Positions 1 through 12,487 of a stretch of 12,487 nt of DNA are shown one piece after another. The stretch lies in the UHGV virus genome UHGV-0355038; one strand, written 5' to 3'. The stretch's first letter is position 1; each line of letters opens with the position of its first letter. The DNA is from a virus. A program made the position numbers and the translations under genes. Under the pieces are notes generated by a model. That model was not told where the DNA came from, made no database searches, and saw only the letters and a program-made list of their open reading frames with translations.

Positions 1-106
1 CATAGCCAAAGGTGCCTGTGTATTTTTTTGAGTTTCAATTATTGCATTTCTCACCAGCGGTGGTAGTGCATATATCGGATAAGGATTTTCTGGTGCAAGT
101 AAGCAC
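1..106 (-). CDS. small hypothetical protein, N-terminal part only (runs off window start); paralog of the 357..584 ORF
   Basis: Minus-strand translation from the ATG at 106..104 gives MCLLAPENPYPIYALPPLVRNAIIETQKNTQAPLAM..., open to the window edge. A GAGAGG Shine-Dalgarno-like motif lies about 5 nt upstream. It shares the pattern PYP.YA.P...NAIIETQ.N..A.LAM with the 75-aa ORF at 357..584. Not in the ORF track because it is partial. Confidence 0.35.
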
Positions 107-143
107 ATAAAAGCCTCTCTTTTCATTAATGGGTTAGTAAAGT

Positions 144-179
144 AGCAGCAACTCCCGCTATAATAGCGAAATAGCTGCT
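144..179. promoter_or_regulatory. palindromic operator-like site upstream of the first small-gene copy
   Basis: AGCAGC (144..149) and GCTGCT (174..179) flank a central palindrome CGCTATAATAGCG that contains a TATAAT -10-like hexamer. It is the counterpart of the better-preserved site at 620..656. Confidence 0.3.
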
Positions 180-356
180 GTTCAGACCTAATGTTCTGAG
201 AAATACAGAATATCTGTAGATCTGATGTTTAATAAACCGATAAGGTTAATTCAGTTCATACTGTGTTATTTACCACGAAATATCATTCATGTTTCTCATT
301 CTTAACACCTCCTAAAATTATTTCACTAACACCTTCCCCCCGGTCTTTTTCCTTTC

Positions 357-584
357 TCAGGAATCAGCCAGAACCATAGTGTAAATATTAACGGGCCCAC
401 GTAAATTTCCGGGGTTGCACACGTCAATCTGATTCTGACAGGCAATTGACATCGCTGTTAATAATGATGTTGTAGTCATAGCCAGAGATGCTTTTTCATT
501 GTGTTGAGTTTCAATTATTGCATTTCCAGTCATTGATGGTTGCGCATATACTGGATACGGAGTATCCGGTTTGATGTAAGACAT
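357..584 (-). CDS. small hypothetical protein (75 aa), tandem paralog of the partial ORF at 1..106
   Basis: ATG start with an AAGGA Shine-Dalgarno motif about 8 nt upstream (minus-strand sense ...AAAAAAGGAAATATTTATG). The N-terminus MSYIKPDTPYPVYAQPSMTGNAIIETQHNEKASLAM aligns with the copy at 1..106. A palindromic operator-like site lies about 36 bp upstream. Confidence 0.45.
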   Translation of the reverse strand: MSYIKPDTPYPVYAQPSMTGNAIIETQHNEKASLAMTTTSLLTAMSIACQNQIDVCNPGNLRGPVNIYTMVLADS

Positions 585-619
585 AAATATTTCCTTTTTT
601 CGTAATAACTTTCGGTTAT

Positions 620-656
620 AGCAGCTATTTCCGCTACAATAGCAACAATAGCTGCT
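620..656. promoter_or_regulatory. perfect 10-bp inverted repeat operator-like site (AGCAGCTATT / AATAGCTGCT), 17-bp spacer
   Basis: AGCAGCTATT at 620..629 and AATAGCTGCT at 647..656 are exact reverse complements. The spacer TCCGCTACAATAGCAAC holds a TACAAT -10-like hexamer. The site sits between the small ORF start (584) and the AlpA-like gene end (690). Confidence 0.4.
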
Positions 657-689
657 ATACAGACTGGATATACTGAAAATACAGACAGT

Positions 690-917
690 TCATCTGGTCT
701 GTATCCAGCAGAGAAGGTCACTTAACAACCATCCGCAAGATTTCTTTCCGATAGACTTACGTGGTGGAAATGTTCCCTCCCGTTCAAGTTTCCACGCTTG
801 TGTACGAGAAATTGACGTGATCTCATATCGTTCCTTTTCACGTACCAGTCTGTCGCATTCAATCCCATAAGCTTTCAAAATGACCAGACGCTGTTCATCT
901 GTTAATGGAAGCCACAT
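690..917 (-). CDS. AlpA-family (phage Vis/AlpA-like) helix-turn-helix transcriptional regulator
   Basis: The track ORF 690..938 begins with a TTG codon. An internal ATG at 917..915 is preceded by a perfect AGGAGG Shine-Dalgarno motif at 5-nt spacing, so I place the start there (75 aa, MWLPLTDEQ...). The C-terminal segment ITSISRTQAWKLEREGTFPPRKSIGKKSCGWLLSDLLCWIQ matches, from memory, the AlpA pattern (S.STiyR...G.FP..+.+G.+s.gW...ei..Wi). Confidence 0.6.
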   Translation of the reverse strand: MWLPLTDEQRLVILKAYGIECDRLVREKERYEITSISRTQAWKLEREGTFPPRKSIGKKSCGWLLSDLLCWIQTR

Positions 918-1608
918 ACTACCCTCCTGATATATCAATACTTTTTATTTCCGGCATGAGCATGAAATGACTAAGTTTCCCGGATAAACAATGAGTGAAA
1001 GTCACTATCATTCATCCAGCCAACACCTTACAAATAAAATGTAATACTATGATTTTTATAGGTCAAAATACTGAATTGAAATGTTAAAATGGCTTTTAAT
1101 AGAAAAAATAAAGACATATAGAACCAAATAAAAACAAGCCGCGACCAATAAAAACAAAAATTAATATTAAAAATCCATTATGACGATTTTTGTTGACTAA
1201 AATTAGGTTGGGATATATAAATAAATCCATGTGAAATTCAAACAAAGCATGGAGGAGTCGCAGGAAGGTGAAATATTTCCATCTAATTTGTGATAATCAT
1301 CACAAAAATAAGCTACAACAAGCGGAGGAAAAGACAATCTGTTGCTGAACAGACAGAAGCAGGCTACGAATGATCGGAAAATGAAGCAAATACGCTTATA
1401 CAGAAGACGCAGGGGTAACTGACGGAGACAATCACAATCAGGAGAAAATGATCGTAAATAATGTATAAAATCTCAGGATATAAACAAATGTACACAAGCT
1501 ATCCACGTAATCTGCGGCTGGCTCAGGATTAACGTTTCATTTCAGTGGACGACATCGATTCTGTCTGACAGTGGGCCAATATGTGGCAAGCAGAAAACTT
1601 CTGACATC

Positions 1609-3240
1609 ATGGTAACTCGGACAATGCAACAAAAGTATGATCGTGTTTTATCTGGCGAATCCCACCCATTCCCTGGCATATACGAGGCGGTTTCCGAACA
1701 ACTCCTTTTGCTCATCTTTAAGGCTCGTCAGCTATATCAGAATCCAGAATATCGCCCCTGGTTTGAAGAACAGCACAGAGTTCTCTCTGCATTACGTGCT
1801 AATACAGAGCTCTTGAGAATATTTAGAGAACAAAGAAACGCGGAAGAACCAGAGCTTATTATTAAAGAATCTACATTACCCCTACTCACTAATTCTAATC
1901 TTACAGATGCGCTTAATATTATGTGCCATTTATACAATGGTTTTGATGAAGGAAATATCAGTCTGAAAACCTGGGGGGCGATGCAAGAGGTACAGACAAC
2001 ATCAACCTTTATCAGCCCGGGACCGAGAACCTGGAAAACACCTGAACTGGCAAAGTTTGTAGGAGATGATTTATTTAATATTCTGACTGAATGTAAAGCC
2101 TGGAGTTCACCAATTCCAGCAGAAACCCGACAGGGCTATTGCCATCAGGATCTGTCTGTTGCACACTCCTGCACCTCAGAGTTACTGGCACACCTGAATC
2201 AATACCATGAAATTGATGAATCAGCAATACTTGCCAGAGTTATTGGTATGACGGTTAACGGATTCTACAAGAAAAATAATACAGACCTCCCAGAATGGCT
2301 ATCCCCCTTTAAAGAGGAACATAAAATATTCAGAGATTGTCTGGAGCAAAAGACCGAGGATGTAATCAGACTGAAAGAACAACTGTTGAAAACAGGACGT
2401 TCAGAATTCGTGAATAATTTGTGTCGGGTCGCCAACTGGTATGAAATTAAGTCAATATACGATGAATATGTCCGTCTTTATGCCAATGAAATCATTGGTT
2501 GGTTCAACAAAACCATGGAATATTTTAAACCAACAGATTTTATCCGATATACATGGAAATTCGCAACAGTTACTCCAGATAAAGAGACAGAAACCAAGCA
2601 TACAACTGCATGGGAAAAGGATTATTGCCAGATAACTATACAACGTGATGAACTTCTGAGATTGATTCACACGAATACCCTTCAGGATGCAGTAATTTAT
2701 CTTTGCCATTGCCTGCAGAAGAAATACAAGAAATCATCCCAAAATGAGATAGAGTTTCCAGGAATAAAACCTCCGGCATCAGAGAGTGAAATTAATATAA
2801 CAGATAATTTTGAATTTTATTCTCTCCTGGAGCTCAGTAAAGATAATGAGAGGCGGCTGGAAACATTTCAAAAATGGTATGAAAAAAATAAAGTTTTGTT
2901 AGAAAGTCATAAACAAAAACGAACAGAGAAGATTGACGTTGCCGTACGACTTGTAGGGCTGAAAGCCTATGATCTGCATGAAGGGATTCCGGATAGTCCA
3001 AAACGAAAAGTTAAAGATGGCATAAATGAAGACATCAAAGCCGATACCAGTTTACGCCTGCCAAAGACAAATATAAGTGATACGTCGCTAAACCGTTATC
3101 GCCGCACTGTTAAGGAGATTATCAATAACGAAATCGACGCATTCCTGTTGGAACAGAAGAAAAAAAATAAAAGATTTCCCTACAGTGAAGATAGAGATGT
3201 GATTCGACCTTTATGGGGAAAATGCCTGACCGGGCAGTAG
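1609..3240 (+). CDS. hypothetical protein, 543 aa, no family recognised
   Basis: Long uninterrupted ORF; antisense ORFs inside it are short. A terminator-like hairpin follows the stop. No Walker A, HExxH or other motif I can name with confidence. The start is ambiguous between ATG 1609 and ATG 1624 (no strong Shine-Dalgarno for either). Confidence 0.65.
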   Translation: MVTRTMQQKYDRVLSGESHPFPGIYEAVSEQLLLLIFKARQLYQNPEYRPWFEEQHRVLSALRANTELLRIFREQRNAEEPELIIKESTLPLLTNSNLTDALNIMCHLYNGFDEGNISLKTWGAMQEVQTTSTFISPGPRTWKTPELAKFVGDDLFNILTECKAWSSPIPAETRQGYCHQDLSVAHSCTSELLAHLNQYHEIDESAILARVIGMTVNGFYKKNNTDLPEWLSPFKEEHKIFRDCLEQKTEDVIRLKEQLLKTGRSEFVNNLCRVANWYEIKSIYDEYVRLYANEIIGWFNKTMEYFKPTDFIRYTWKFATVTPDKETETKHTTAWEKDYCQITIQRDELLRLIHTNTLQDAVIYLCHCLQKKYKKSSQNEIEFPGIKPPASESEINITDNFEFYSLLELSKDNERRLETFQKWYEKNKVLLESHKQKRTEKIDVAVRLVGLKAYDLHEGIPDSPKRKVKDGINEDIKADTSLRLPKTNISDTSLNRYRRTVKEIINNEIDAFLLEQKKKNKRFPYSEDRDVIRPLWGKCLTGQ

Positions 3241-3248
3241 ATCACTGA

Positions 3249-3280
3249 GGGGATAACAGCCCGGTTATCCCCTGTTTGTT
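3249..3280 (+). terminator. intrinsic terminator-like hairpin between convergent genes
   Basis: GGGGATAAC (3249..3257), loop AGCCCG, GTTATCCCC (3264..3272): a perfect 9-bp stem. It is followed by TGTTTGTT and starts 9 nt after the stop of the 1609..3240 ORF. Confidence 0.5.
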
Positions 3281-3326
3281 CTGCTTCAGGTTGCCAGAGC
3301 TCCAGGAACACGAGGCAATCGGCAAA

Positions 3327-3923
3327 TTATGCGGCTTTTCCATTAACAGATTCGGCCACAAGAACAACACCGTGTTTGTTTCGATCAGGATGTTCACTCC
3401 AGATTTCTGATTCAGGAATGCTTTCCCCATCATAGCAGATCCGATCACCATCAAACGGATAATACCGTGCGGAATCTGTAGCTAAGATAAACACCTTAAG
3501 ATTCGTTGAACGACGCGCTATATGCTGCCAGAGGGCTTTACCTCCTTCATATTGCTCGTTATCACTTAATAGTATAACGCCTGCTTTTGTGGCTATTGTT
3601 TCATAAACAAACGTAGCAAGGCTAACATCACGTACAGCACCATCGACAACAATCCCTTCAATCTGAGCAACGTCCTGTTCTTCCCAGAATTTCCGGACAA
3701 ACACCCCTTCAAGTCGGGGACGACGCTGAAGCTCCAGAGTGGCAACAACCTTATGGCGAATATCACCATCAATAACAGAAGGTGCAGCTTCGATTACCGC
3801 AGCGAACGGAGTCTTTGGATCCCAGATGATCTGGTAAAGCACACCCTGAATAGTTACTCCATCCAGTATCGAAAAACGACGAGCTACAGTAGCAGGGGAG
3901 TAAGACATTGGAATGACAGCCAT
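3327..3923 (-). CDS. hypothetical protein, 198 aa, no family recognised
   Basis: ATG-initiated ORF on the minus strand, convergent with 1609..3240. The composition looks like a real globular protein (e.g. ...IATKAGVILLSDNEQYEGGKALWQHIARRS...). I could not assign a fold by eye. Confidence 0.6.
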   Translation of the reverse strand: MAVIPMSYSPATVARRFSILDGVTIQGVLYQIIWDPKTPFAAVIEAAPSVIDGDIRHKVVATLELQRRPRLEGVFVRKFWEEQDVAQIEGIVVDGAVRDVSLATFVYETIATKAGVILLSDNEQYEGGKALWQHIARRSTNLKVFILATDSARYYPFDGDRICYDGESIPESEIWSEHPDRNKHGVVLVAESVNGKAA

Positions 3924-4233
3924 TTTATGGCCTAAAATTTGAAAACATCAGTATCAATACTGACCTCATCAGTCTGAGCATATATTGATAAAGTTTTTAT
4001 GTTTACACTCAATAAATACCTTACCAAACAACTAATAGCGATGTCTACATTGCCATTCGACATGCTTACAATTTTTGTCAACAAGAAAGTGAATTTATAT
4101 CAACGGTAAGAAGTAAACACGAGGACACCAAAACCAAATGTACACACTTTTGTGCTTTGTGTCCCCTGTGTGTACCCAAATGACAAACTGCAAGAAAATC
4201 TAGGCACACACTTATCTAACTTATTGATTTAAA

Positions 4234-4279
4234 TGGTGCCGATAATAGGAGTCGAACCTACGACCTTCGCATTACGAAT
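4234..4279 (-). repeat. 46-nt 3' fragment of a tRNA gene (most likely tRNA-Thr CGU, thrW-like): integration-site (att) repeat
   Basis: Minus-strand sense reads ATTCGTAATGCGAAGGTCGTAGGTTCGACTCCTATTATCGGCACCA: anticodon loop with CGT, variable loop, T-arm GTAGG-TTCGACT-CCTAT, acceptor 3' strand TATCGGC, discriminator A and CCA. The sequence 5' of it (GGATTCTTATA) does not continue a D-arm or acceptor 5' strand, so this is a partial copy and not a gene. Confidence 0.65.
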
Positions 4280-5026
4280 TATAAGAATCCGCTTCTAATT
4301 CAAAGTATTACCCCATCAACACTGTGCTCACACGTCCCACCACATCAAAACATGTAAAGCCTTGCAAGCCATTGTGAGGCCTTATGTGTCTCAGTTTTGT
4401 CCCACCTTGTATTATGACTTGCATAGCCAATGAAGATAAACGTGACGACAAACAGCGCAGCAGTCTTCTTTTCTTTCACACTTTCCCCAATCAGCATACA
4501 TACTTTCTACCATAACTGTAGTGAATGTCTGTTATGAGCGAGCAAAAGAGATTCAATTACCGGGGAATTACTCCGACATAAGCTCTCCCAGAAACACCGG
4601 AACAGCGATTCGCATATTCTCTTCTATACTTTCAGTCTGACCGGCTGGAGATTTCATAGCAAGAAAATGGATGAGCCAAGACCTATGCGGGAAAGAGGCT
4701 GAGGAAATAATTGCCGATAGCACTGTGCCCGACGAAAAGTTAATCTGGCACGCAATGACGCGCGTCCTTGGGGCATCAGGAATCAGAGAGCCAACTTAAC
4801 AACCCATTATATATTATTTAACCGGACTGTTACATGTACAAAGTTCAATGATTAGTGATTCTGTGACGCCACATACAACCTAAGCCCCTGATATAAAACC
4901 AGTCTATGCAACACCTAAAAATCATATATGATAGGGTGATAAGTCAACGCGCAGTATAAAAATTAAGCTAAAAAATGCTTTCAGCATAGTGAATCTATTT
5001 CACACTACATAATTAAGGATGAAAAA

Positions 5027-5872
5027 ATGACTGCACCAGTAATTAGTTTTATCAATATGAAAGGTGGGGTTGGTAAAACAACTTTATGCGTTGGGATTGC
5101 TGAGTTTTTAGCCAACCATATGGGGCGCAAGGTTCTAGTTATCGATATTGATCCTCAATTTAATGCCACTCAGTCCTTAATGGGGCATTATGATCGAGTA
5201 GAAGAATATATGACTGCCCTTCGCCCTAATAATCAAACCATTCGAAAGATTTTTGAGCTTCCAAATTCATTAATGGAAGATGAAAAGAAAGTGACACCAG
5301 AACAGGTCATTACTAAAGTTTCAGACAATCTTGATATTATCTTAGGTGATATAAACATTATCTTTGATACTAACCAAGAGGGTATTAGAATAAAAATGTT
5401 GCGTAAATTCATCACCGAAAATGACTTAAAAGAAAGTTACGACTATATCTTTATCGATAGCCCCCCAACAATCTCATTATTTACAGATACCGCACTCCTT
5501 GCTTCTGATTATTATCTTACTCCGGTTAAAATTGATCACTACTCGGTGCTTGGAGCAAGCAGTTTAAATAGCGTTATAAGAAATATGCGCACACATCATG
5601 AGAAAGAAATCAAGCAAGTCGGTTACATTTATACAAACACTGATGCTGAAATGACCAATAAAACAAGGGAAATTAAAGAACAATTCGAAAACCATACTCA
5701 ATTTACAAATTTTTATTTCTTTGAAAATCAATTAACCTACGTGCGTGATTTAATGGTAGGTTATCAAGGAAATATTCCTTCTTGTTATTCAAAGTCACGC
5801 CAAGATATAGAAAAGATCTGTAACGAATTTATTAACAGAGTGGCTCACTTGGAAGGTAACACAAATGAATAA
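5027..5872 (+). CDS. ParA/MinD/Soj-family P-loop ATPase (deviant Walker A)
   Basis: AAGGA Shine-Dalgarno motif 7 nt upstream of the ATG. N-terminal INMKGGVGKTT (deviant Walker A KGGxxGK[ST]), VIDIDPQ (typical ParA DxDPQ motif) and a hydrophobic Walker B-like IFIDSPP. 281 aa, no N-terminal HTH extension. Confidence 0.75.
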   Translation: MTAPVISFINMKGGVGKTTLCVGIAEFLANHMGRKVLVIDIDPQFNATQSLMGHYDRVEEYMTALRPNNQTIRKIFELPNSLMEDEKKVTPEQVITKVSDNLDIILGDINIIFDTNQEGIRIKMLRKFITENDLKESYDYIFIDSPPTISLFTDTALLASDYYLTPVKIDHYSVLGASSLNSVIRNMRTHHEKEIKQVGYIYTNTDAEMTNKTREIKEQFENHTQFTNFYFFENQLTYVRDLMVGYQGNIPSCYSKSRQDIEKICNEFINRVAHLEGNTNE

Positions 5873-6263
5873 ACAATTAATTAAAGCGCTCAATAAAGCT
5901 AATAATATGCCCATGACCAAAGAAAACTTCTTAGGCTTGGTAATTATGTTGATTCTTTCAAAAGAGGTTTTTAGATCAAATTTTGATGTTAGTAAATTTA
6001 TTAACAAAACCTTCAAAATATCTTTTTTGAATTATGCTGTACGGTCAAGAACTTTGATGTGCGCTAAAATTTGCAGACATATTAATGAATTAAGTGAGAA
6101 TGACATAAAGATGGCTTATACGCATTTCTTAAACAACATTAACACATTAGACATTATTTTTAATGATGCAAATAAAACAAGCCAAAAACCCACATCTAAA
6201 AGCAAGCATGCTATAAGGAATTTAAATATTTGGATTAATGCAAATAAAAAGGAAGAAGAATAA
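5865..6263 (+). CDS. hypothetical protein, 132 aa, Lys/Asn-rich, no family recognised
   Basis: ATG overlaps the upstream stop by 8 nt (ATGAATAA). A GGAAGG Shine-Dalgarno motif lies about 8 nt upstream. Very AT-rich codon usage shared with its neighbours. Confidence 0.6.
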   Translation: MNKQLIKALNKANNMPMTKENFLGLVIMLILSKEVFRSNFDVSKFINKTFKISFLNYAVRSRTLMCAKICRHINELSENDIKMAYTHFLNNINTLDIIFNDANKTSQKPTSKSKHAIRNLNIWINANKKEEE

Positions 6264-6928
6264 TGCTCACGCAGGATCCCTTCAACATTGGAAGAGATGT
6301 AAATTATTTTAGAGCGGAGGTGCAAAAGCACCTCAGAACCACTGATGAAATAAACAAATCAGTATCAATATTTAGGCAAATAAGTCTTTGTAATACAATT
6401 TTAAGTCACAATCCTAATCTAAATCACTCTTCTTATATAAAAGGTTTTATATATGATACCTTAAACTCCTTAATTGCCATTATAAAAAAAAGAGAACGGT
6501 ATCTCCAACTGAACTTCCGCTCAATGGTGGAGCATGTGGCCAGAATAAGCCTCAATAAGAACTACAATGGTGGGGATTTTGACCAAACTGTACGTCGTAG
6601 AGACTTTGACTTCTTAAAAGCCCAACAAGTCGATGAAGGCTGGTCTTATTTACATAATGTCTATATCAACGCCTGTTATTATGTTCACTCCTCCCCCCAA
6701 GCGAACCTAAATGTTACATCAACATTTATATCACTTATGGAGGGAGATTGTAATTCAACACAGCATAAAATGGTGAAAAAACTTCATGAGGTAGTATCGG
6801 CGCTGATGAGAATCATTATAAAGTATTATCATCAGCATATCTCAAACATTTTCTTTAGAAACAAAAAGGATTTAGAGAAAATAATGGGAAAAAGCCTTTA
6901 TTCATATTATACCAGCTTAGACAATTAA
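6263..6928 (+). CDS. hypothetical protein, 221 aa, no family recognised (speculative HEPN-like R-x4-H motifs)
   Basis: Start overlaps the upstream stop by 1 nt (TAATG). An AAGGAAG Shine-Dalgarno motif is upstream. It contains R-x4-6-H strings (RSMVEH, RIIIKYYH) that could be coincidental. Confidence 0.6.
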   Translation: MLTQDPFNIGRDVNYFRAEVQKHLRTTDEINKSVSIFRQISLCNTILSHNPNLNHSSYIKGFIYDTLNSLIAIIKKRERYLQLNFRSMVEHVARISLNKNYNGGDFDQTVRRRDFDFLKAQQVDEGWSYLHNVYINACYYVHSSPQANLNVTSTFISLMEGDCNSTQHKMVKKLHEVVSALMRIIIKYYHQHISNIFFRNKKDLEKIMGKSLYSYYTSLDN

Positions 6929-6965
6929 TTCTCTCATATTCATTGCGTAGAGCATAAATATCTAT

Positions 6966-7461
6966 CTAACCACCTAAAATGCCAGAAAATCTAGTTGTAT
7001 ACCGGTGCGAAAATATCTCGCGTTTCATCTGCCACTGCTGCTGAATGCCCTGCCCAGCGAAACAGAGTGTTTCCTTCCCGTCTTTTGCATTGAGGTGCTC
7101 CAGCACGCTCATTAACTTTTCGCTCCCAGGACCCAGCGCGTTATCGTCGAATAGGTTAGGGCATGCTCTGACTGAAGAAGTCCCCCAGCATTACCCCGGC
7201 TTTCTGATATCGGTGTCCGTCTTTCCATATTGCATCCAGACTCCCCGTTGCTACTGCAATGATATCCCGACTGTCCTGTGTCGGGATGAGCAGCTTCACC
7301 GACGCGCTGTTACAGTAGTACGACTCGTTCAACGCAAAGGGTATCGTGTAAAACCGATGATGACACTGCCGGCAATCAGCACTGACGTCAGCAAACGTGA
7401 GAAAGAACAGATAAGCCGAACGATTTAGGAAATGTTTGAAGAGACTGATATGTGGATGGTT
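6966..7461 (-). pseudogene. umuC: umuC-like Y-family translesion polymerase gene, 3' remnant, frameshifted and 5'-truncated
   Basis: Minus-strand translation gives ...FYTIPFALNESYYCNSASVKLLIPTQDSRDIIAVATGSLDAIWKDGHRYQKAGVMLGDFFSQ. After a frameshift near 7160..7175 it gives NLFDDNALGPGSEKLMSVLEHLNAKDGKETLCFAGQGIQQQWQMKREIFSHRYTTRFSGILGG-stop. This matches my recollection of the UmuC C-terminus (...HRYQKAGVMLGDFFSQ...NLFDDNA...GQGIQQQWQMKR...PRYTTR...). No intact ORF remains, and the upstream extent (possibly to about 7790) is uncertain. Confidence 0.6.
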
Positions 7462-7858
7462 TCAGTTTAAACGCCTTGAACCGTCATATTACCTAAGTAC
7501 AATCCGCTGTGACTGGCAATCATTCAATACTTGCACTATCAAAAGTGCATCAGCCAACCGCAGCACGTCTTGCATACGACCTGTCTGCGGTTTCAATCAC
7601 CTCTCACCACCAGTCCCATCAATAATAATTAAACAGCGCCTAAACAAAATAAATAACAACAAGTCAACAACCTCGACAGGATGCCGATGGGATGATGAAG
7701 AGATAAGAAAGAATAACTAGTAAAGCCCTAAAACGTCAGCGTTCAGACGCGTTTTTTACTTAACCGGTAACAAATACGTTGTATCATAGCAACATAAAAT
7801 GATTGTTCTAAATCAGATTAACTCCTCACTTTTGTACAATGTCGCTTACAGGTATACC

Positions 7859-9748
7859 ATGAAATCCGAGACGCTAACTGTCCAACAACTTTTTCAAGAC
7901 CGCCGACAATACTGTGTTCCATTCTATCAACGTGCCTATGTATGGACTCAGCGAAACCAATGGTCAGCTCTACTGGAGGATATCCTAGAGAAAGCACAAT
8001 CCCGGCTCTCGGGTACAAAACCAACTCCCCATTTCCTTGGTGCAGTGGTACTGGAACCTCAACCAAAAAAAGGATTATTCGGTGTAGATTCCATACATAT
8101 TATTGATGGTCAGCAACGATTGACCACTCTTCAATATGTTCTGGCATCCATCCGATTAGCATTACGTGCGACAGATCTTTCCAACTTAGAGCCTCTCATT
8201 TCGTCTTGCCTGAAAAACTCAAACGAAGACACAATGCGAAATAAAGAAGTAGAGCGCTTCAAACTGTGGCCAACTTTTCGGGATCAAACTCATTTTATTC
8301 AAAGTTTTAATGTTGAAAATATTGACGATATCCGGAATGTATTCTCTGATAGTTTCACGCAGCATGGTACGTTGCGTAAGCATTTTAATCACCCGCCATC
8401 ACTAGAAGCATTATGTTTTTTTACTGAAGCCTTTATAAAGTGGATTAAAATAGAAAATCACTCACCACGAGAAAATGCTGTAGCATTAATTGAGGCTGTC
8501 TTGACGGATCTGAAACTAGTAAGCATATTTCTCGAGGCTGAAGATGACGCTCAAATAATTTTTGAAACATTAAATGGCAGAGGTGCGGAACTTCATGCCA
8601 CAGATCTTATTCGCAATTATATTTTTATGTGCGCTGAACATGAAAATATTAATGCTGTTGAATTATATGAGAATGAGTGGAAGATCTTTGAAGATACGTA
8701 CTGGTCAGAAAGACAACGTCGTGGTCGTATTAATAAACCACGCATGGAGTGGCTAGTGCATGCAACATTGCAATCAGAAAGGCAACGTGAAATCGATCTG
8801 TCTCGTCTTTACAATGAGTATCGTGATTATGTAAGTAAGGACTTGCCTTCACAACGAGCAGATCTGCAAGTAAAGCGCCTCAAACAATATGCATCACAAT
8901 ATAAAGAATTGGTTGGTGGTTTTGGCACAACCCCCATCTCACACTTTGGACATCGCATCGCAGCCTATGATGTGACGACACTTTATCCGCTTGCTTTGTT
9001 CATTTCGATAGCTAACATCGCCGATGATGAGAAAGCAGCCATGTATAATGATCTTGTCTCCTACGTAGTACGAAGAGCCGTATGTGGCCTGACGCCAAAG
9101 AATTACAACAATGTATTTATGAATGTATTGCGGCACTTGTCTAAAACAGAAATTTCCAGTGTTGAGTTACGTAATATCCTCAATAGCTTAAATGGCGAAG
9201 CCTCACGTTGGCCTGGGGACTCAGAATTTCTCAACGCTTGCATCAATGCTCCACTTTATCCTGGCAGGCTCGACGCACCGAAAATGCGCTCAATGTTAAC
9301 GGAACTTGAAAGAGAACTTTGTCGCCAAGTGAAGACAGAGAAGCCTGATGTTCCAAATCTTTCTAACCTCGATATCGATCATCTTATGCCTCAAAGTTGG
9401 TATTCCTGTTGGCCTCTCGAAAATGGTCATATAGTGACAAATTCAGATGCTACGGTATTGAACCAAATTGTTCTGTCTGGAACCGATCTTACCCCAGAAC
9501 AGCTACTGGTAAGGAAACGGCAACAAGCGATAGCTACGTTGGGAAATCTAACTTTGCTTAACCTTAGCGTAAACCGTTCTGTTCAGAATGCTGTATTTCT
9601 GAAAAAACGTGATGCTCTCATCGTCCACACCAATCTACGACTGAACATTCCACTTATAGTTAAGGATAAATGGGATGAGGATGAAATCCTGGAGCGGGGT
9701 AAAAAGTTGGGGGAAATTGCATTGAAAGTATGGCCAAAACACGATTAA
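7859..9748 (+). CDS. GmrSD-family putative type IV (modification-dependent) restriction endonuclease: N-terminal DUF262 (ParB-like NTPase) plus C-terminal DUF1524 (His-Me finger nuclease)
   Basis: N-terminal YCVPFYQRAYVW and IIDGQQRLTTLQ (the DGQQR signature of DUF262). C-terminal LSNLDIDHLMPQSW (DUF1524-like D-H..P.S nuclease motif). The track ORF starts at ATG 7799; I prefer the in-frame ATG at 7859 (AGG 9 nt upstream; the conserved block then starts near residue 18), but 7799 is possible. Confidence 0.75.
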   Translation: MKSETLTVQQLFQDRRQYCVPFYQRAYVWTQRNQWSALLEDILEKAQSRLSGTKPTPHFLGAVVLEPQPKKGLFGVDSIHIIDGQQRLTTLQYVLASIRLALRATDLSNLEPLISSCLKNSNEDTMRNKEVERFKLWPTFRDQTHFIQSFNVENIDDIRNVFSDSFTQHGTLRKHFNHPPSLEALCFFTEAFIKWIKIENHSPRENAVALIEAVLTDLKLVSIFLEAEDDAQIIFETLNGRGAELHATDLIRNYIFMCAEHENINAVELYENEWKIFEDTYWSERQRRGRINKPRMEWLVHATLQSERQREIDLSRLYNEYRDYVSKDLPSQRADLQVKRLKQYASQYKELVGGFGTTPISHFGHRIAAYDVTTLYPLALFISIANIADDEKAAMYNDLVSYVVRRAVCGLTPKNYNNVFMNVLRHLSKTEISSVELRNILNSLNGEASRWPGDSEFLNACINAPLYPGRLDAPKMRSMLTELERELCRQVKTEKPDVPNLSNLDIDHLMPQSWYSCWPLENGHIVTNSDATVLNQIVLSGTDLTPEQLLVRKRQQAIATLGNLTLLNLSVNRSVQNAVFLKKRDALIVHTNLRLNIPLIVKDKWDEDEILERGKKLGEIALKVWPKHD

Positions 9749-9770
9749 TGCAATTAATAAAATGATTATA

Positions 9771-9794
9771 GCGGCCTTACATTAGTAAGGCCGC
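9771..9794. terminator. perfect 10-bp stem hairpin downstream of the GmrSD-like gene
   Basis: GCGGCCTTAC-ATTA-GTAAGGCCGC. The T-run is weak on the plus strand; on the minus strand it is followed by TATAATCATTTTATT. It may terminate either or both convergent transcripts. Confidence 0.4.
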
Positions 9795-9839
9795 TACTCA
9801 CTATTAAATCCTTTAATTTGCAACAAGAACAGCAGTGTC

Positions 9840-9971
9840 AGCCCTAGGTTTCGGACTTTGTACCGCTTATCTTGTCTTCAAAATCAGCTCGCATCCTGCA
9901 CAGTTCAGCGCATTACGTTGTAGATCTGTGTTCTGGTCATTTGTTGATACGCGAACATAGCCAATAAGCAT
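9840..9971 (-). pseudogene. pin: Gin/Pin/Cin/Hin-family serine DNA invertase, N-terminal stub only
   Basis: Minus-strand ATG at 9971..9969 translates MLIGYVRVSTNDQNTDLQRNALNCAGCELI, the near-invariant invertase N-terminus containing the catalytic-serine region (VRVST). A 1-nt loss in a T-run then shifts the frame (LKTR-stop); the +1 frame still reads FEDKISGTKSE before a TAG. Homology ends around 9830 where the GmrSD cassette begins. Not in the ORF track (too short). Confidence 0.7.
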
Positions 9972-10000
9972 GATAGCTCCTCCTGACAAAAACAGGAACG

Positions 10001-10474
10001 ATGCCATTTGCGCGCTATTTCTGCATTTTCATAAACGTTCAATTGGGAGAAGCGGCAAAACGGGATGTCGGAACCGGTAATAATCAACTCCCGGACATGT
10101 CCGCATTTGGTATGTCGCGAAACGGACAAACTGCCTGGGATATTCTCCCAAATGGTATGATTCGACAGGTTGGTACTGTGACACTGACGCCTGTTGGTAA
10201 TTTCAACGCAATTACTCTTGGTGGAGTGCTGTACTACACCCATTACTACAGGGTTAATTTCCCCAGACAATTCCCAAATGCACAAATAGCAACGCTGGCA
10301 ACACTAGCGAGTTACAGCTTTTCGACCCAGTCATCAATGGCTGGGAAATCACTGGCAACGCATCGCGATACTGATTCTGGCACTGACGTATCAAGAACGC
10401 GATTCACTGTGTCGTATACGACACCCAATCTCGGCGAAATTCCGACTTTGCATTTTGAAGCAATAGGATACTAA
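10001..10474 (+). CDS. alternative tail-fibre C-terminal (receptor-binding tip) cassette, S'-like, inverted relative to the expressed fibre gene
   Basis: 157-aa ORF; the frame is open from 9977. Its beginning ...INVQLGEAAKRDVGTGNN... parallels ...NALQLGTAATRDVGADNA... inside the minus-strand fibre gene, and both end in A(I/L)GY. The cassette has no obvious promoter or Shine-Dalgarno motif of its own. Confidence 0.55.
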   Translation: MPFARYFCIFINVQLGEAAKRDVGTGNNQLPDMSAFGMSRNGQTAWDILPNGMIRQVGTVTLTPVGNFNAITLGGVLYYTHYYRVNFPRQFPNAQIATLATLASYSFSTQSSMAGKSLATHRDTDSGTDVSRTRFTVSYTTPNLGEIPTLHFEAIGY

Positions 10475-10476
10475 AT

Positions 10477-10710
10477 ATGGAGAATATGTATTTCAGCCCA
10501 ACGACCGTTGGTTTTTATGTTTCTGAACAAGAGCGACCTGATGATGCGGTTGAAGTCTCGCCAGAGGTGGAGGCATTTTTGAGGGAGTGTGTTATCTGGG
10601 GAGCGGATACATTTAACGTAGAGCGAGATGCAGCAACGGTGACATATCCAACAGAACTGCTTGAATATGTCACCACCTACAACGCCCCCGTTAAATATCC
10701 TGCGGATTGA
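10477..10710 (+). CDS. small ORF downstream of the S' cassette, U'-like (alternative tail fibre assembly chaperone), possibly truncated
   Basis: ATG 2 nt after the S' stop (TAA-at-ATG), the same spacing as the fibre/Tfa junction on the other strand (TAA-ga-ATG). It is 77 aa, and its 3' end overlaps the 3' end of the minus-strand Tfa gene by 20 bp. The assignment is by position; I see no family motif. Confidence 0.4.
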   Translation: MENMYFSPTTVGFYVSEQERPDDAVEVSPEVEAFLRECVIWGADTFNVERDAATVTYPTELLEYVTTYNAPVKYPAD

Positions 10711-11101
10711 CAGGCCATACGGGTTTTGCTGTATCAACGCGCATCAGCAAGACCCGGTATTTTTTCCATTCAGATAACGCGGCGGTTTCTTCTGCCGTCG
10801 CGATTTCCGCATCAAAAGCATCCTGTCTCCAGGCTATTTCCTTATCAGCCATAGAACGCAATACCGTTCTTTTCTGTTCAGCCTGAATAATCTGTTGTTC
10901 AGCGGAGAGTGGCGGGATATCAATCCACGCAGGATTACCATTTTTATCAGCCCCCAGCGTTTTGCCTTGTGGCGCTACGCCTGTGTAAATTGCCATTGTT
11001 TCATCATCAACATCAACGCCATTTTCAGGCCATGAACCGGCGCTGATATATACCTCTTTTAGTGCTTTCGGATAGAAAGAGCCTTTATAAAATTTATTCA
11101 T
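10691..11101 (-). CDS. tfa: tail fibre assembly protein (lambda Tfa / Mu U family)
   Basis: C-terminal ...[27 protein letters not shown]... matches, from memory, the conserved lambda Tfa C-terminus (...[25 protein letters not shown]..WP). I place the start at the ATG at 11101, which is 2 nt after the fibre stop with GGGG upstream; the track ORF from 11131 would overlap the fibre gene. Confidence 0.75.
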   Translation of the reverse strand: [136 protein letters not shown]

Positions 11102-11103
11102 TC

Positions 11104-12487
11104 TTAATACCCCAGCGCGATAAAACAACAATCTTCGGTGCCCTCTCCGGATGGCGACCAGTTCTGAATACTGATATGCGTTCTGCTGGCAATACGCACA
11201 TTCATCGCGGCATTGTAGCCAGATGTTCCACGGTTTCCGGTCGCAAATAAGCCTGCATAGGGAAAAGCAAATGGTAAGGCATATCCAGCATCAGCTCCCT
11301 TTTGTGTTGCCACCATTCCCCACTGCAACATAAGTTTCACCGGGTTTCCTGTCGTCGCAATGCATGGAATGTAGATGTAGCCATTCCCTGACATCATTGA
11401 CCTGAAGCTGTCTAAACCCAGTAACTTCGAGGCATTATCTGCTCCAACATCTCGTGTTGCGGCGGTCCCTAACTGGAGCGCATTTCGGAAGGCTGATACA
11501 TCAGAAATATCAGCTCCATTAGCCGATTTCTGCATAGCTCCGGAGGCTTTATTTATCGTTTCGCCCAAACCAAGGTATGCGAGAAGACCAGCTACATCCT
11601 TTCCACTCAAATTAGTCAGCGTATTGTCCAGCGGTTGTTTGCCCGCCAGTGCGCTCTGTACTTCGCTTTTGCTGTAGGCATCCAGATCTTTAGGCGTAAG
11701 CGTAATATCCTTCGTGCCGTCAAACGGAACGCCGTTGATATTCCGTGCAGTCTGTAGTTTTGTGGCAGTTGCAGCATTACCAGTGGTGTTCTGATTACCC
11801 GTAGTGTTTACACCTGGAAGGTTAATATTTGCAGAACCGTCGAAAACAACTCCACCGATAGATCTTGCCGTCTGCAATTTCGTGGCTGTACTTGCATTAC
11901 CATTCAATGAACCAGTTAATCCACCTGTAACAGACAACGGACCTGAAACTGTTCCTCCGGTTGTTGGCAGTGCTCCAATATCTAACGGCGTCGGTTTCTG
12001 ATGTGTGCTATACATCGTATAAACAACACCATAGGTAACGCTGGAAGGCTTACTCGCTGAATATGTTGGCGAGGTATAAACAGAAACTGACGCATTTGCA
12101 GTACAATCCCAATGGATATTTACACTCGTCGCATAATTGCCAATCTCAACGTAAATATCATATGTATCGCCGGATGTGTTGATCCAGGCGAAATTCGTTA
12201 ATCCGACGGCTGTACGCTTCCACAAAGCCCCGGTAATTCCTTTGGGGTTTCCATTGCCTGCTCGTAGAACCAGTTCTGAAATGCCTGCCTGATGTGGGGA
12301 ACCGACGTTGTAACCAGCGCCACCAATCAATGCGATGTAAACGATGGAACTCGCCTGTGGCATGGTTACCGTTGCTAATTTGAACCAACCAGCACCACCG
12401 CTGAATGACATTGTTGTTGAGTTAAGCGTACCAATATCTTTCGGCGTCAGTGTTATATCCGCTGAAAGCGCCTTACCATTCACCTTA
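11104..12487 (-). CDS. stf: side tail fibre protein, C-terminal about 460 aa (5' end beyond the window)
   Basis: Repeated fibre motifs (DITLTPKD twice; ATKLQTARSIGGVVFDGSANI / ATKLQTARNINGVPFDGTKDI), Gly/Ser/Thr-rich composition, and an immediately downstream Tfa. The track methionine at 12483 is probably internal. Confidence 0.8.
   Translation of the reverse strand, partial: KVNGKALSADITLTPKDIGTLNSTTMSFSGGAGWFKLATVTMPQASSIVYIALIGGAGYNVGSPHQAGISELVLRAGNGNPKGITGALWKRTAVGLTNFAWINTSGDTYDIYVEIGNYATSVNIHWDCTANASVSVYTSPTYSASKPSSVTYGVVYTMYSTHQKPTPLDIGALPTTGGTVSGPLSVTGGLTGSLNGNASTATKLQTARSIGGVVFDGSANINLPGVNTTGNQNTTGNAATATKLQTARNINGVPFDGTKDITLTPKDLDAYSKSEVQSALAGKQPLDNTLTNLSGKDVAGLLAYLGLGETINKASGAMQKSANGADISDVSAFRNALQLGTAATRDVGADNASKLLGLDSFRSMMSGNGYIYIPCIATTGNPVKLMLQWGMVATQKGADAGYALPFAFPYAGLFATGNRGTSGYNAAMNVRIASRTHISIQNWSPSGEGTEDCCFIALGY

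Follow-up and report, generated by a model that had tools for sequence, protein, structure and literature searches.

An orphan pin-type tail fibre switch in an Escherichia coli lambdoid prophage has lost its own invertase and is probably still inverted by one encoded elsewhere

Does an invertible tail fibre segment stop switching once the invertase gene beside it has been destroyed? The question is raised by UHGV virus genome UHGV-0355038, a stretch of 12,487 nucleotides (nt) that we call the window and number from its first letter. At its end, the constant part of a tail fibre gene (stf), a variable tip (tip A) and the tail fibre assembly gene tfa on the minus strand face an alternative tip (tip B) and an open reading frame (ORF) of 77 amino acids (aa) on the plus strand, next to the remnant of a pinE-type serine invertase gene. 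A preliminary description of this DNA, made from its letters without database searches, recognised the architecture of the Mu G, P1 C and e14 P segments and concluded that the element is locked in one fibre specificity unless an invertase acts in trans. The gene order on the two strands is borne out by the ORFs, their Pfam matches and an annotated relative, and the assignment to this type of invertible fibre segment is supported by crossover sites, recombinant junctions and a homologous control end. The segment is not frozen: chromosomes with one and the same invertase stump and flank carry it in either orientation, at 100% identity. We therefore think it likely that the locus is an orphan pin-type tail fibre switch which has lost its own invertase and is still flipped by an invertase encoded elsewhere, so that it was the hedge in the preliminary description, rather than its conclusion, that pointed the right way, with the reservation that one sub-lineage shows a single orientation.

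The window is E. coli chromosome, with the segment sitting in a lambdoid prophage, and positions 9400-12487 are 100% identical to several complete E. coli genomes. We inverted the segment in silico (9400-10037, followed by the reverse complement of 10038-11573 and by 11574-12487; 3088 nt) and searched all complete E. coli genomes with this construct. It was recovered at 100% over all 3088 nt in five chromosomes (WCHEC005784, 32-4, 3090, BDSF8-3 and WCHEC025985), each with the identical invertase stump and the identical flank carrying a GmrSD-like gene, and the orientation of the window was found at 100% over the same 3088-nt frame, with the same flank and stump, in ten chromosomes. The junctions in the retrieved loci are exactly the predicted hybrids. 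We refer to the arrangement of the window as orientation A and to the inverted one as orientation B; the isolated phage phi458 likewise carries the segment in orientation B, at 99.6% identity and with the predicted hybrid junction.

The number of events can be bounded by an insertion sequence (IS) of the IS3 family that strain 164 (orientation A) and WCHEC005784 (orientation B) share at window position ~10242, where it interrupts tip B. From core to core, the segment measures 2849 bp in both strains and in one is the exact reverse complement of the other, and the 1.4 to 1.5 kb of flank on either side is identical. All four combinations of IS presence or absence with orientation A or B were found, which implies at least two inversions after the truncation of the invertase if the IS inserted a single time. 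The same IS3-family element (1313 bp including its target duplication; positions ~1994-3400 of locus L010 and ~3400-4830 of locus L011) is present in eight genomes. Stump and remaining fibre region lie ~580 kb apart in strain IH5, and a group II intron and IS629 are found nearby in NZ_CM148374; these cases suggest that further rearrangements were seeded at the IS3-family insertion.

The crossover sites came to light only through the recombinant junction of phage phi458 (...TTCTCGCATACC TT CAATTGGGAGAA...), an exact hybrid of two 26-bp sequences of the window; a generic repeat search of the window did not report the pair, the arms of which are too imperfect. The right site was mapped from the recombinant junctions of phi458 and of E. 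coli genomes with the opposite orientation (loci L003, L005, L006 and L011). Together, the two sites form an inverted pair with imperfect 12-bp half-sites around an identical 2-bp core, which reads TT at the left and AA at the right site on the plus strand. All four half-sites differ in sequence and the hybrids place the exchange within the TT/AA core, a confinement that is the signature of a serine invertase and not of homologous recombination. When the whole 12.5-kb window was scanned against the consensus TTCTCNNAAACCWWGGTTTNNGAGAA (22 specified positions), the right site (2 mismatches) and the left site (5 mismatches) ranked first and second, the next-best match having 7 mismatches; shuffled windows would be expected to hold 0.017 sites with at most 5 mismatches each. 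The half-sites of Mu gix, P1 cix and e14 pix, as read from annotated records, all fit the pattern TTNTCNNAAACC, and the P1 cores are TT and AA as in the window. P1 cixR (TTCTCTTAAACC AA GGTATTGGATAA) resembles the right site, with which it shares a GGTAT variant, while the left site is identical in its outer half and core to the pinE-proximal pix of K-12 e14 and differs from it at three positions of the inner half.

These sites are not where the protein sequences seem to put them. The preliminary description had taken the two crossover regions to be similar at protein level (QLG.AA.RDVG) and visibly diverged at DNA level. Both tips do carry this motif, but the divergence in DNA is one between the tips inside the segment and not one between the sites, and the discovery of an intact, inverted 26-bp pair refutes the notion of diverged sites. 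The right junction, suspected at 11400-11470, has to be moved to 11560-11585, ~100 bp deeper into the fibre gene than the QLG..RDVG motif, from which the AYLGLGE residues encoded at the site are separated by ~35 extra residues of tip A; in the former interval, only about 14 of 26 positions agree with the left site by eye, and no recombinant junction falls there. In several other genomes (e.g., VG1046-3E9 and BS74R-D), 99% homology to flank and stump ends exactly at 10051/10052, and the left site thus seems to be a boundary for the exchange of whole cassettes between prophages as well.

That the invertase gene is a pseudogene, as had been proposed, is confirmed by alignment of the stump to K-12 pinE and to an intact 184-aa relative (locus L006, annotated pinE; Pfam Resolvase 1.7e-51, HTH_7 3.2e-12). 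About 134 nt of the gene are left on the minus strand, starting at 9971 (MLIGYVRVSTNDQNTDLQRNAL...) and thus indeed 30 bp from the start codon of the silent-cassette ORF at 10001. The first 88 nt (window 9971 to 9884) match K-12 pinE at 87 of 88 positions, after which the absence of one T from a run of five (window 9880-9883) terminates the MLIGY frame after 34 codons. Recognisable invertase homology stops at ~9838, with the C-terminal ~140 codons gone, and the PGAP annotation accordingly reads 'recombinase family protein; frameshifted; incomplete; missing C-terminus'. No intact small serine invertase (Resolvase plus HTH_7, ~185-190 aa) lies beside the segment in the window.

What has survived of the gene may nevertheless matter in cis. 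In the P1 reference record, nt 19-90 of cin are annotated as 'enhancer of Cin-mediated C-segment inversion', and the corresponding stretch of the window is identical to the P1 enhancer at 57 of 72 positions (Mu gin: 55 of 72) and to the intact pinE relative at 68 of 70. The distance from site core to invertase start codon is 67.5 bp here and in e14 and 67 bp in Mu, and the 1-nt deletion falls at the far edge of the enhancer-equivalent stretch. For comparison, the Hin enhancer spans 65 bp with a Fis site at either end and natively lies ~99 bp from hixL (PMC3798978). Judged by these alignments, the truncation removed the protein yet probably left the cis-acting enhancer in the stump.

We propose that a serine invertase would cut both 26-bp sites at their 2-bp cores, upon which the 1536-bp segment would rotate and place behind the constant part of Stf either tip A with Tfa (the state of the window) or tip B with the 77-aa protein. 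The locus's own invertase gene has been reduced to its first ~134 nt beside the GmrSD-like defence gene, while both sites have survived, as has the 5' coding stretch that is an enhancer in P1 cin; owing to their survival, the segment would stay an invertase substrate and would be inverted by a compatible invertase from another prophage or a phage-plasmid in the same cell. The features of the locus are collected in Table 1.

Table 1. Features of the invertible tail fibre locus and its junctions (window positions)
Feature	Position	Strand	Remarks
stf, constant part	11574..12487	-	runs past the window end; full gene 1008 aa in NZ_OZ501671.1
stf constant part and tip A together	11104 to 12487 and beyond	-	
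Tip A, variable C-terminal part of Stf	11104..11571	-	joined to the constant part in the window orientation; Pfam Gp53-like_C 1.6e-7
tfa, tail fibre assembly protein paired with tip A	10691..11101	-	136 aa; Pfam Caudo_TAP 2.4e-31 (full profile); phrog_188 3.8e-42
77-aa ORF paired with tip B	10477..10710	+	chaperone-slot position; 20-bp overlap with the 3' end of tfa
Tip B cassette	10040..10474	+	silent in the window orientation; Gp53-like_C 6.3e-7
Leader ahead of tip B cassette	10001..10039	+	13 codons, MPFARYFCIFINV; the program-called tip B ORF starts at 10001
Invertible segment, core to core	10038..11573		1536 bp
Right crossover site	11560..11585		TTCGCCCAAACC AA GGTATGCGAGAA; core AA at 11572-11573; inside stf; encodes AYLGLGE
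Left crossover site	10026..10051		TTTTCATAAACG TT CAATTGGGAGAA; core TT at 10038-10039
Junction sequences			orientation A TTTTCATAAACGTTCAATTGGGAGAA; orientation B TTTTCATAAACGTTGGTTTGGGCGAA
pinE-type serine invertase remnant	9838..9971	-	~codons 1-45
Enhancer-equivalent stretch	9882..9953	-	invertase nt 19-90, by homology to P1 cin
Hairpin, terminator-like	9768..9797		perfect 13-bp stem; between GmrSD-like gene and invertase stump
GmrSD-like (DUF262/DUF1524) type IV restriction-type gene	7799..9748	+	649 aa; Pfam GmrSD_N 7.8e-34, GmrSD_C 5.1e-20

The reading frames are intact in both states of the switch, and in orientation B tip B is joined to the constant part in frame, giving 1010 open codons. 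PGAP nonetheless calls the fibre gene of orientation B a pseudogene ('incomplete, missing C-terminus') and leaves tip B unannotated (L003 4738-7770, L005 5302-8334 and L006 5302-8202), which is a systematic annotation artefact for inverted segments. The preliminary description had pointed to the unequal lengths of the two partner genes, 77 against 136 aa; the difference is real and does not reflect truncation, as E. coli, Citrobacter, Enterobacter and Phytobacter all have relatives of the short ORF that are 77-80 aa long, a conserved family with identities down to 59% and many invariant columns. We had considered that a deletion fusing two convergent genes might have truncated the ORF, and rejected this because its length is conserved across genera and it is also found after a single fibre gene in a P2-like tail module. 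The homologue in question, which is the most distant one (P0030), directly follows the fibre gene in the usual slot of the fibre assembly gene, and the last 147 residues of that fibre are 51% identical to tip B, which argues that tip B and the 77-aa protein are a co-inherited pair. Only residues 1-31 of the 77-aa ORF resemble Tfa (phrog_188, 8e-5), and the ORF has no Pfam match, including to PF02413 (Caudo_TAP) across the domain; its position in the partner gene slot suggests a chaperone-like role. Tip B and the 77-aa ORF are thus intact members of conserved families and not decayed, and both forms of the fibre would be expected to be functional. A separate start codon and a leader homologous to that of e14 StfE (MPFACYFFIFINV in e14) are present in the silent slot, each orientation is also predicted to encode a free tip protein of 157 or 168 aa, and a promoter scan of 9600-11700 gave no sigma-70 consensus site.

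Where could an invertase come from? Our searches of E. coli genomes return the best place per genome, and additional pin-like loci were therefore counted through chimeric queries. The GmrSD-like gene and its flank are single copy in these genomes. A 200-bp probe from the 5' end of pin has a second or third place in most chromosomes with the GmrSD-like flank, including four of the five in orientation B, and a chimeric probe made of the lineage flank and the 3' part of the invertase that the stump lacks finds two to three places in all 18 chromosomes with a 100% flank. Given the single-copy flank, the latter result indicates one to two further loci resembling the catalytic and helix-turn-helix part of an invertase in every one of these 18 chromosomes, which bears on the question, put in the preliminary description, of whether another pin/gin homologue exists elsewhere in the genome. 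It is established that Gin, Cin, Pin and Hin can complement one another. In K-12, work from 2025 found that the e14 P segment inverts more when PinQ of prophage Qin is supplied from a plasmid (PMC12529663). As a donor in the lineage studied here, e14 was rejected since its mcrA end is absent from all genomes of the lineage.

The reading opposite to ours is that of a relic locked, in the strain of the window, in the Tfa/tip A state, with tip B and the 77-aa ORF as decaying passengers. Its starting point is the truncated invertase, and it can draw on a group of 18 assemblies that have an IS903B insertion and lack the GmrSD-like flank, all of them in orientation A and almost all without a second pin-like 5' region on the chromosome, as well as on Ec-2977, the genome closest to the window, in which the 5' probe finds the stump only. 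It can also invoke K-12, in which the e14 segment was locked once pinE had been deleted, despite the presence of pinQ (PMC12529663). Against such a relic stand the two orientations with identical stump, flank and IS insertion, the intact crossover sites and the intact state of tip B and its partner in conserved families; moreover, Ec-2977 retains one extra locus resembling the 3' part of an invertase, and many of the all-A assemblies repeat one strain ('strain 167'). We consider such a relic unlikely, while the segment may be locked in some hosts such as the IS903B sub-lineage, which fits what locking without a helper invertase would look like. A further account, by which the two orientations arose through RecA-dependent recombination, import from a related prophage or assembly error, appears hardly tenable to us. 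Related prophages with an intact pinE do hold the same cassettes and might have served as donors, and assemblers choose one orientation from a mixed population. These candidate donors, however, are only ~98% identical, whereas the segments compared here are 100% reverse complements including the IS, between identical flanks; the sole terminal inverted repeat is the 26-bp pair, too short and imperfect for RecA, and the exchange lies within the 2-bp core. A choice made by assemblers would itself imply a switching population.

The reading that we prefer, an orphan switch flipped in trans, has to accommodate several observations that weigh against it. The trans-acting invertase was neither located nor confirmed to be intact by searches that return the best place per genome, and WCHEC025985, itself in orientation B, has no second pin-like 5' region and one extra 3'-like locus. 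Trans action at native levels can be weak, by analogy with the K-12 pinE deletion, and the 18 IS903B-flank assemblies are uniform in orientation. At the locus itself, the inner half of the left site (CAATTGGGAGAA) departs three times from the GGTTT consensus beside the core, and both an enhancer function of the stump and a requirement for Fis are proposed from homology. A further possibility is that the switch is kept for the host and not for the phage, with the segment, the enhancer-bearing stump and the GmrSD-like gene forming a phase-variable defence locus driven by the invertases of other elements. The e14 StfE/StfE2 pair has been reported to block adsorption of phage T2, and by analogy with StfE2 the free tip protein might block the receptors of incoming phages (PMC12529663). 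We regard this idea as doubtful.

The surroundings of the stump suggest how the invertase was lost. The GmrSD-like gene borders directly on the truncated invertase gene and has probably taken the place of its 3' part. Across strains (window 7799-9838; L005 2289-4136; L006 1-4136; L014 5686-7180), the defence genes beyond pin differ: the window has the GmrSD-like gene against its 134-nt stump, strain 5CRE51 has rnlAB against a pin stump of 288 nt, in strain 2017.15.02CC an intact pinE precedes genes for a GIY-YIG protein, a cytosine methyltransferase and a restriction endonuclease, and in K-12 e14 pinE is followed by mcrA. In the group of 18 assemblies mentioned above, IS903B sits at window position 9801, 37 bp past the stump, and a type I restriction gene, hsdR, is found nearby instead of the GmrSD-like flank. 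The DNA just past pin looks like a hotspot for swaps of defence cargo, and the invertase gene seems to be worn away from its 3' end as cargo is exchanged.

On the other side of the segment, the annotated record NZ_OZ501671.1 places the region at the distal end of a lambdoid prophage tail module, in which a tape measure gene, L, J and lom are accompanied by a 'prophage tail fiber' gene of 1008 aa that lies downstream of J and lom. Over its whole length the window is nearest to E. coli strain Ec-2977 (99.3% identity, 100% of length), the only complete E. coli genome that has window positions 1-4216. Positions 1-7720 are a portion of an integrative element, with a ParA-like ATPase encoded at 5027-5872 and ORFs without Pfam match at 1609-3240, 3327-3923, 5865-6928 and 7045-7720; in NZ_OZ501671.1, genes for a tyrosine integrase and a relaxase lie in the matching region together with fragments of DinI and DUF4113.

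Among known systems, the locus comes closest to the P segment of K-12 e14 with its invertase PinE. Beyond the stump, the spacing and the left half-site described above, window positions 9849-10052 are 91% identical to e14, the silent-slot ORF begins after a 30-bp gap with a homologous leader, and a type IV restriction-type gene lies just past pin (mcrA in e14, GmrSD-like here). The control end of the locus, comprising the 5' region of the invertase gene, the proximal site and the leader, is thus orthologous to that of the e14 P segment. PinQ, the invertase of a different prophage, inverts the e14 segment as well (PMC12529663). Apart from this end, the two differ: pinE is intact in e14 and truncated here, the segment measures 1797 bp there and 1536 bp here, and the cassettes are unrelated at DNA level, with only 9849-10052 aligning and no homology found to stfP/tfaP or stfE/tfaE. 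Furthermore, the fibre in the window is a Stf that belongs to a lambdoid tail module including J and lom, and one of its two partner proteins is the 77-aa protein and not a Caudo_TAP-type Tfa.

As in the G segment of Mu (Gin) and the C segment of P1 (Cin), one constant fibre part in the locus can be combined with either of two tips, and the two partner genes are convergent. The 26-bp sites follow the same half-site pattern and have, as in cix, an AA/TT core, and the first 90 nt of the invertase gene contain a stretch equivalent to the enhancer in P1 cin; Cin of P1 and the intact relative of the stump share 82% identity. Unlike in these two myoviruses, the tail is of the lambdoid siphovirus type, tips and partner genes are unrelated in sequence, and no functional invertase is encoded in cis. 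In P1, moreover, cin points at the segment, with cixL located at its 3' end. The same segment, at 98-99.6% identity and with the predicted hybrid junctions, is found in phi458 (OP434518) and in E. coli prophages such as that of strain 2017.15.02CC. Phage phi458 differs in orientation, carries an IS1 in tip A and has a different, likewise decayed invertase (a 92-aa ORF at positions 6469-6747 of locus L002, MIYGYVRVSTNHQ...), and loss of the invertase in cis beside these segments appears to be recurrent. Strain 2017.15.02CC, unlike the window, has an intact 184-aa pinE and then restriction-modification genes instead of the GmrSD-like gene. The locus hence is an orphan substrate of the Hin/Gin/Cin/Pin family and not a complete member of it, and the mechanism of inversion is unchanged.

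None of this is new in principle, given that the action of PinQ on the e14 segment was already published in 2025 (PMC12529663). The interest of the locus lies in the natural evidence for repeated inversion in trans after loss of the invertase and in the likely survival of the enhancer in the stump, by which 134 nt of a broken gene may be functional DNA and not junk. For the annotation of such elements, it shows that the real sites can lie ~100 bp from an obvious repeat at protein level and that a standard pipeline mislabels orientation B as a fibre pseudogene. More generally, a dead invertase does not imply that the invertible segment next to it is dead as well, which corrects a plausible misreading of loci of this kind. 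We thus see in it a natural, population-level example of cross-talk between mobile elements, in which the host-range switch (and possibly defence switch) of one prophage would depend on a recombinase from another element, such that the switch could be released when an unrelated prophage or plasmid is gained and locked when one is lost.

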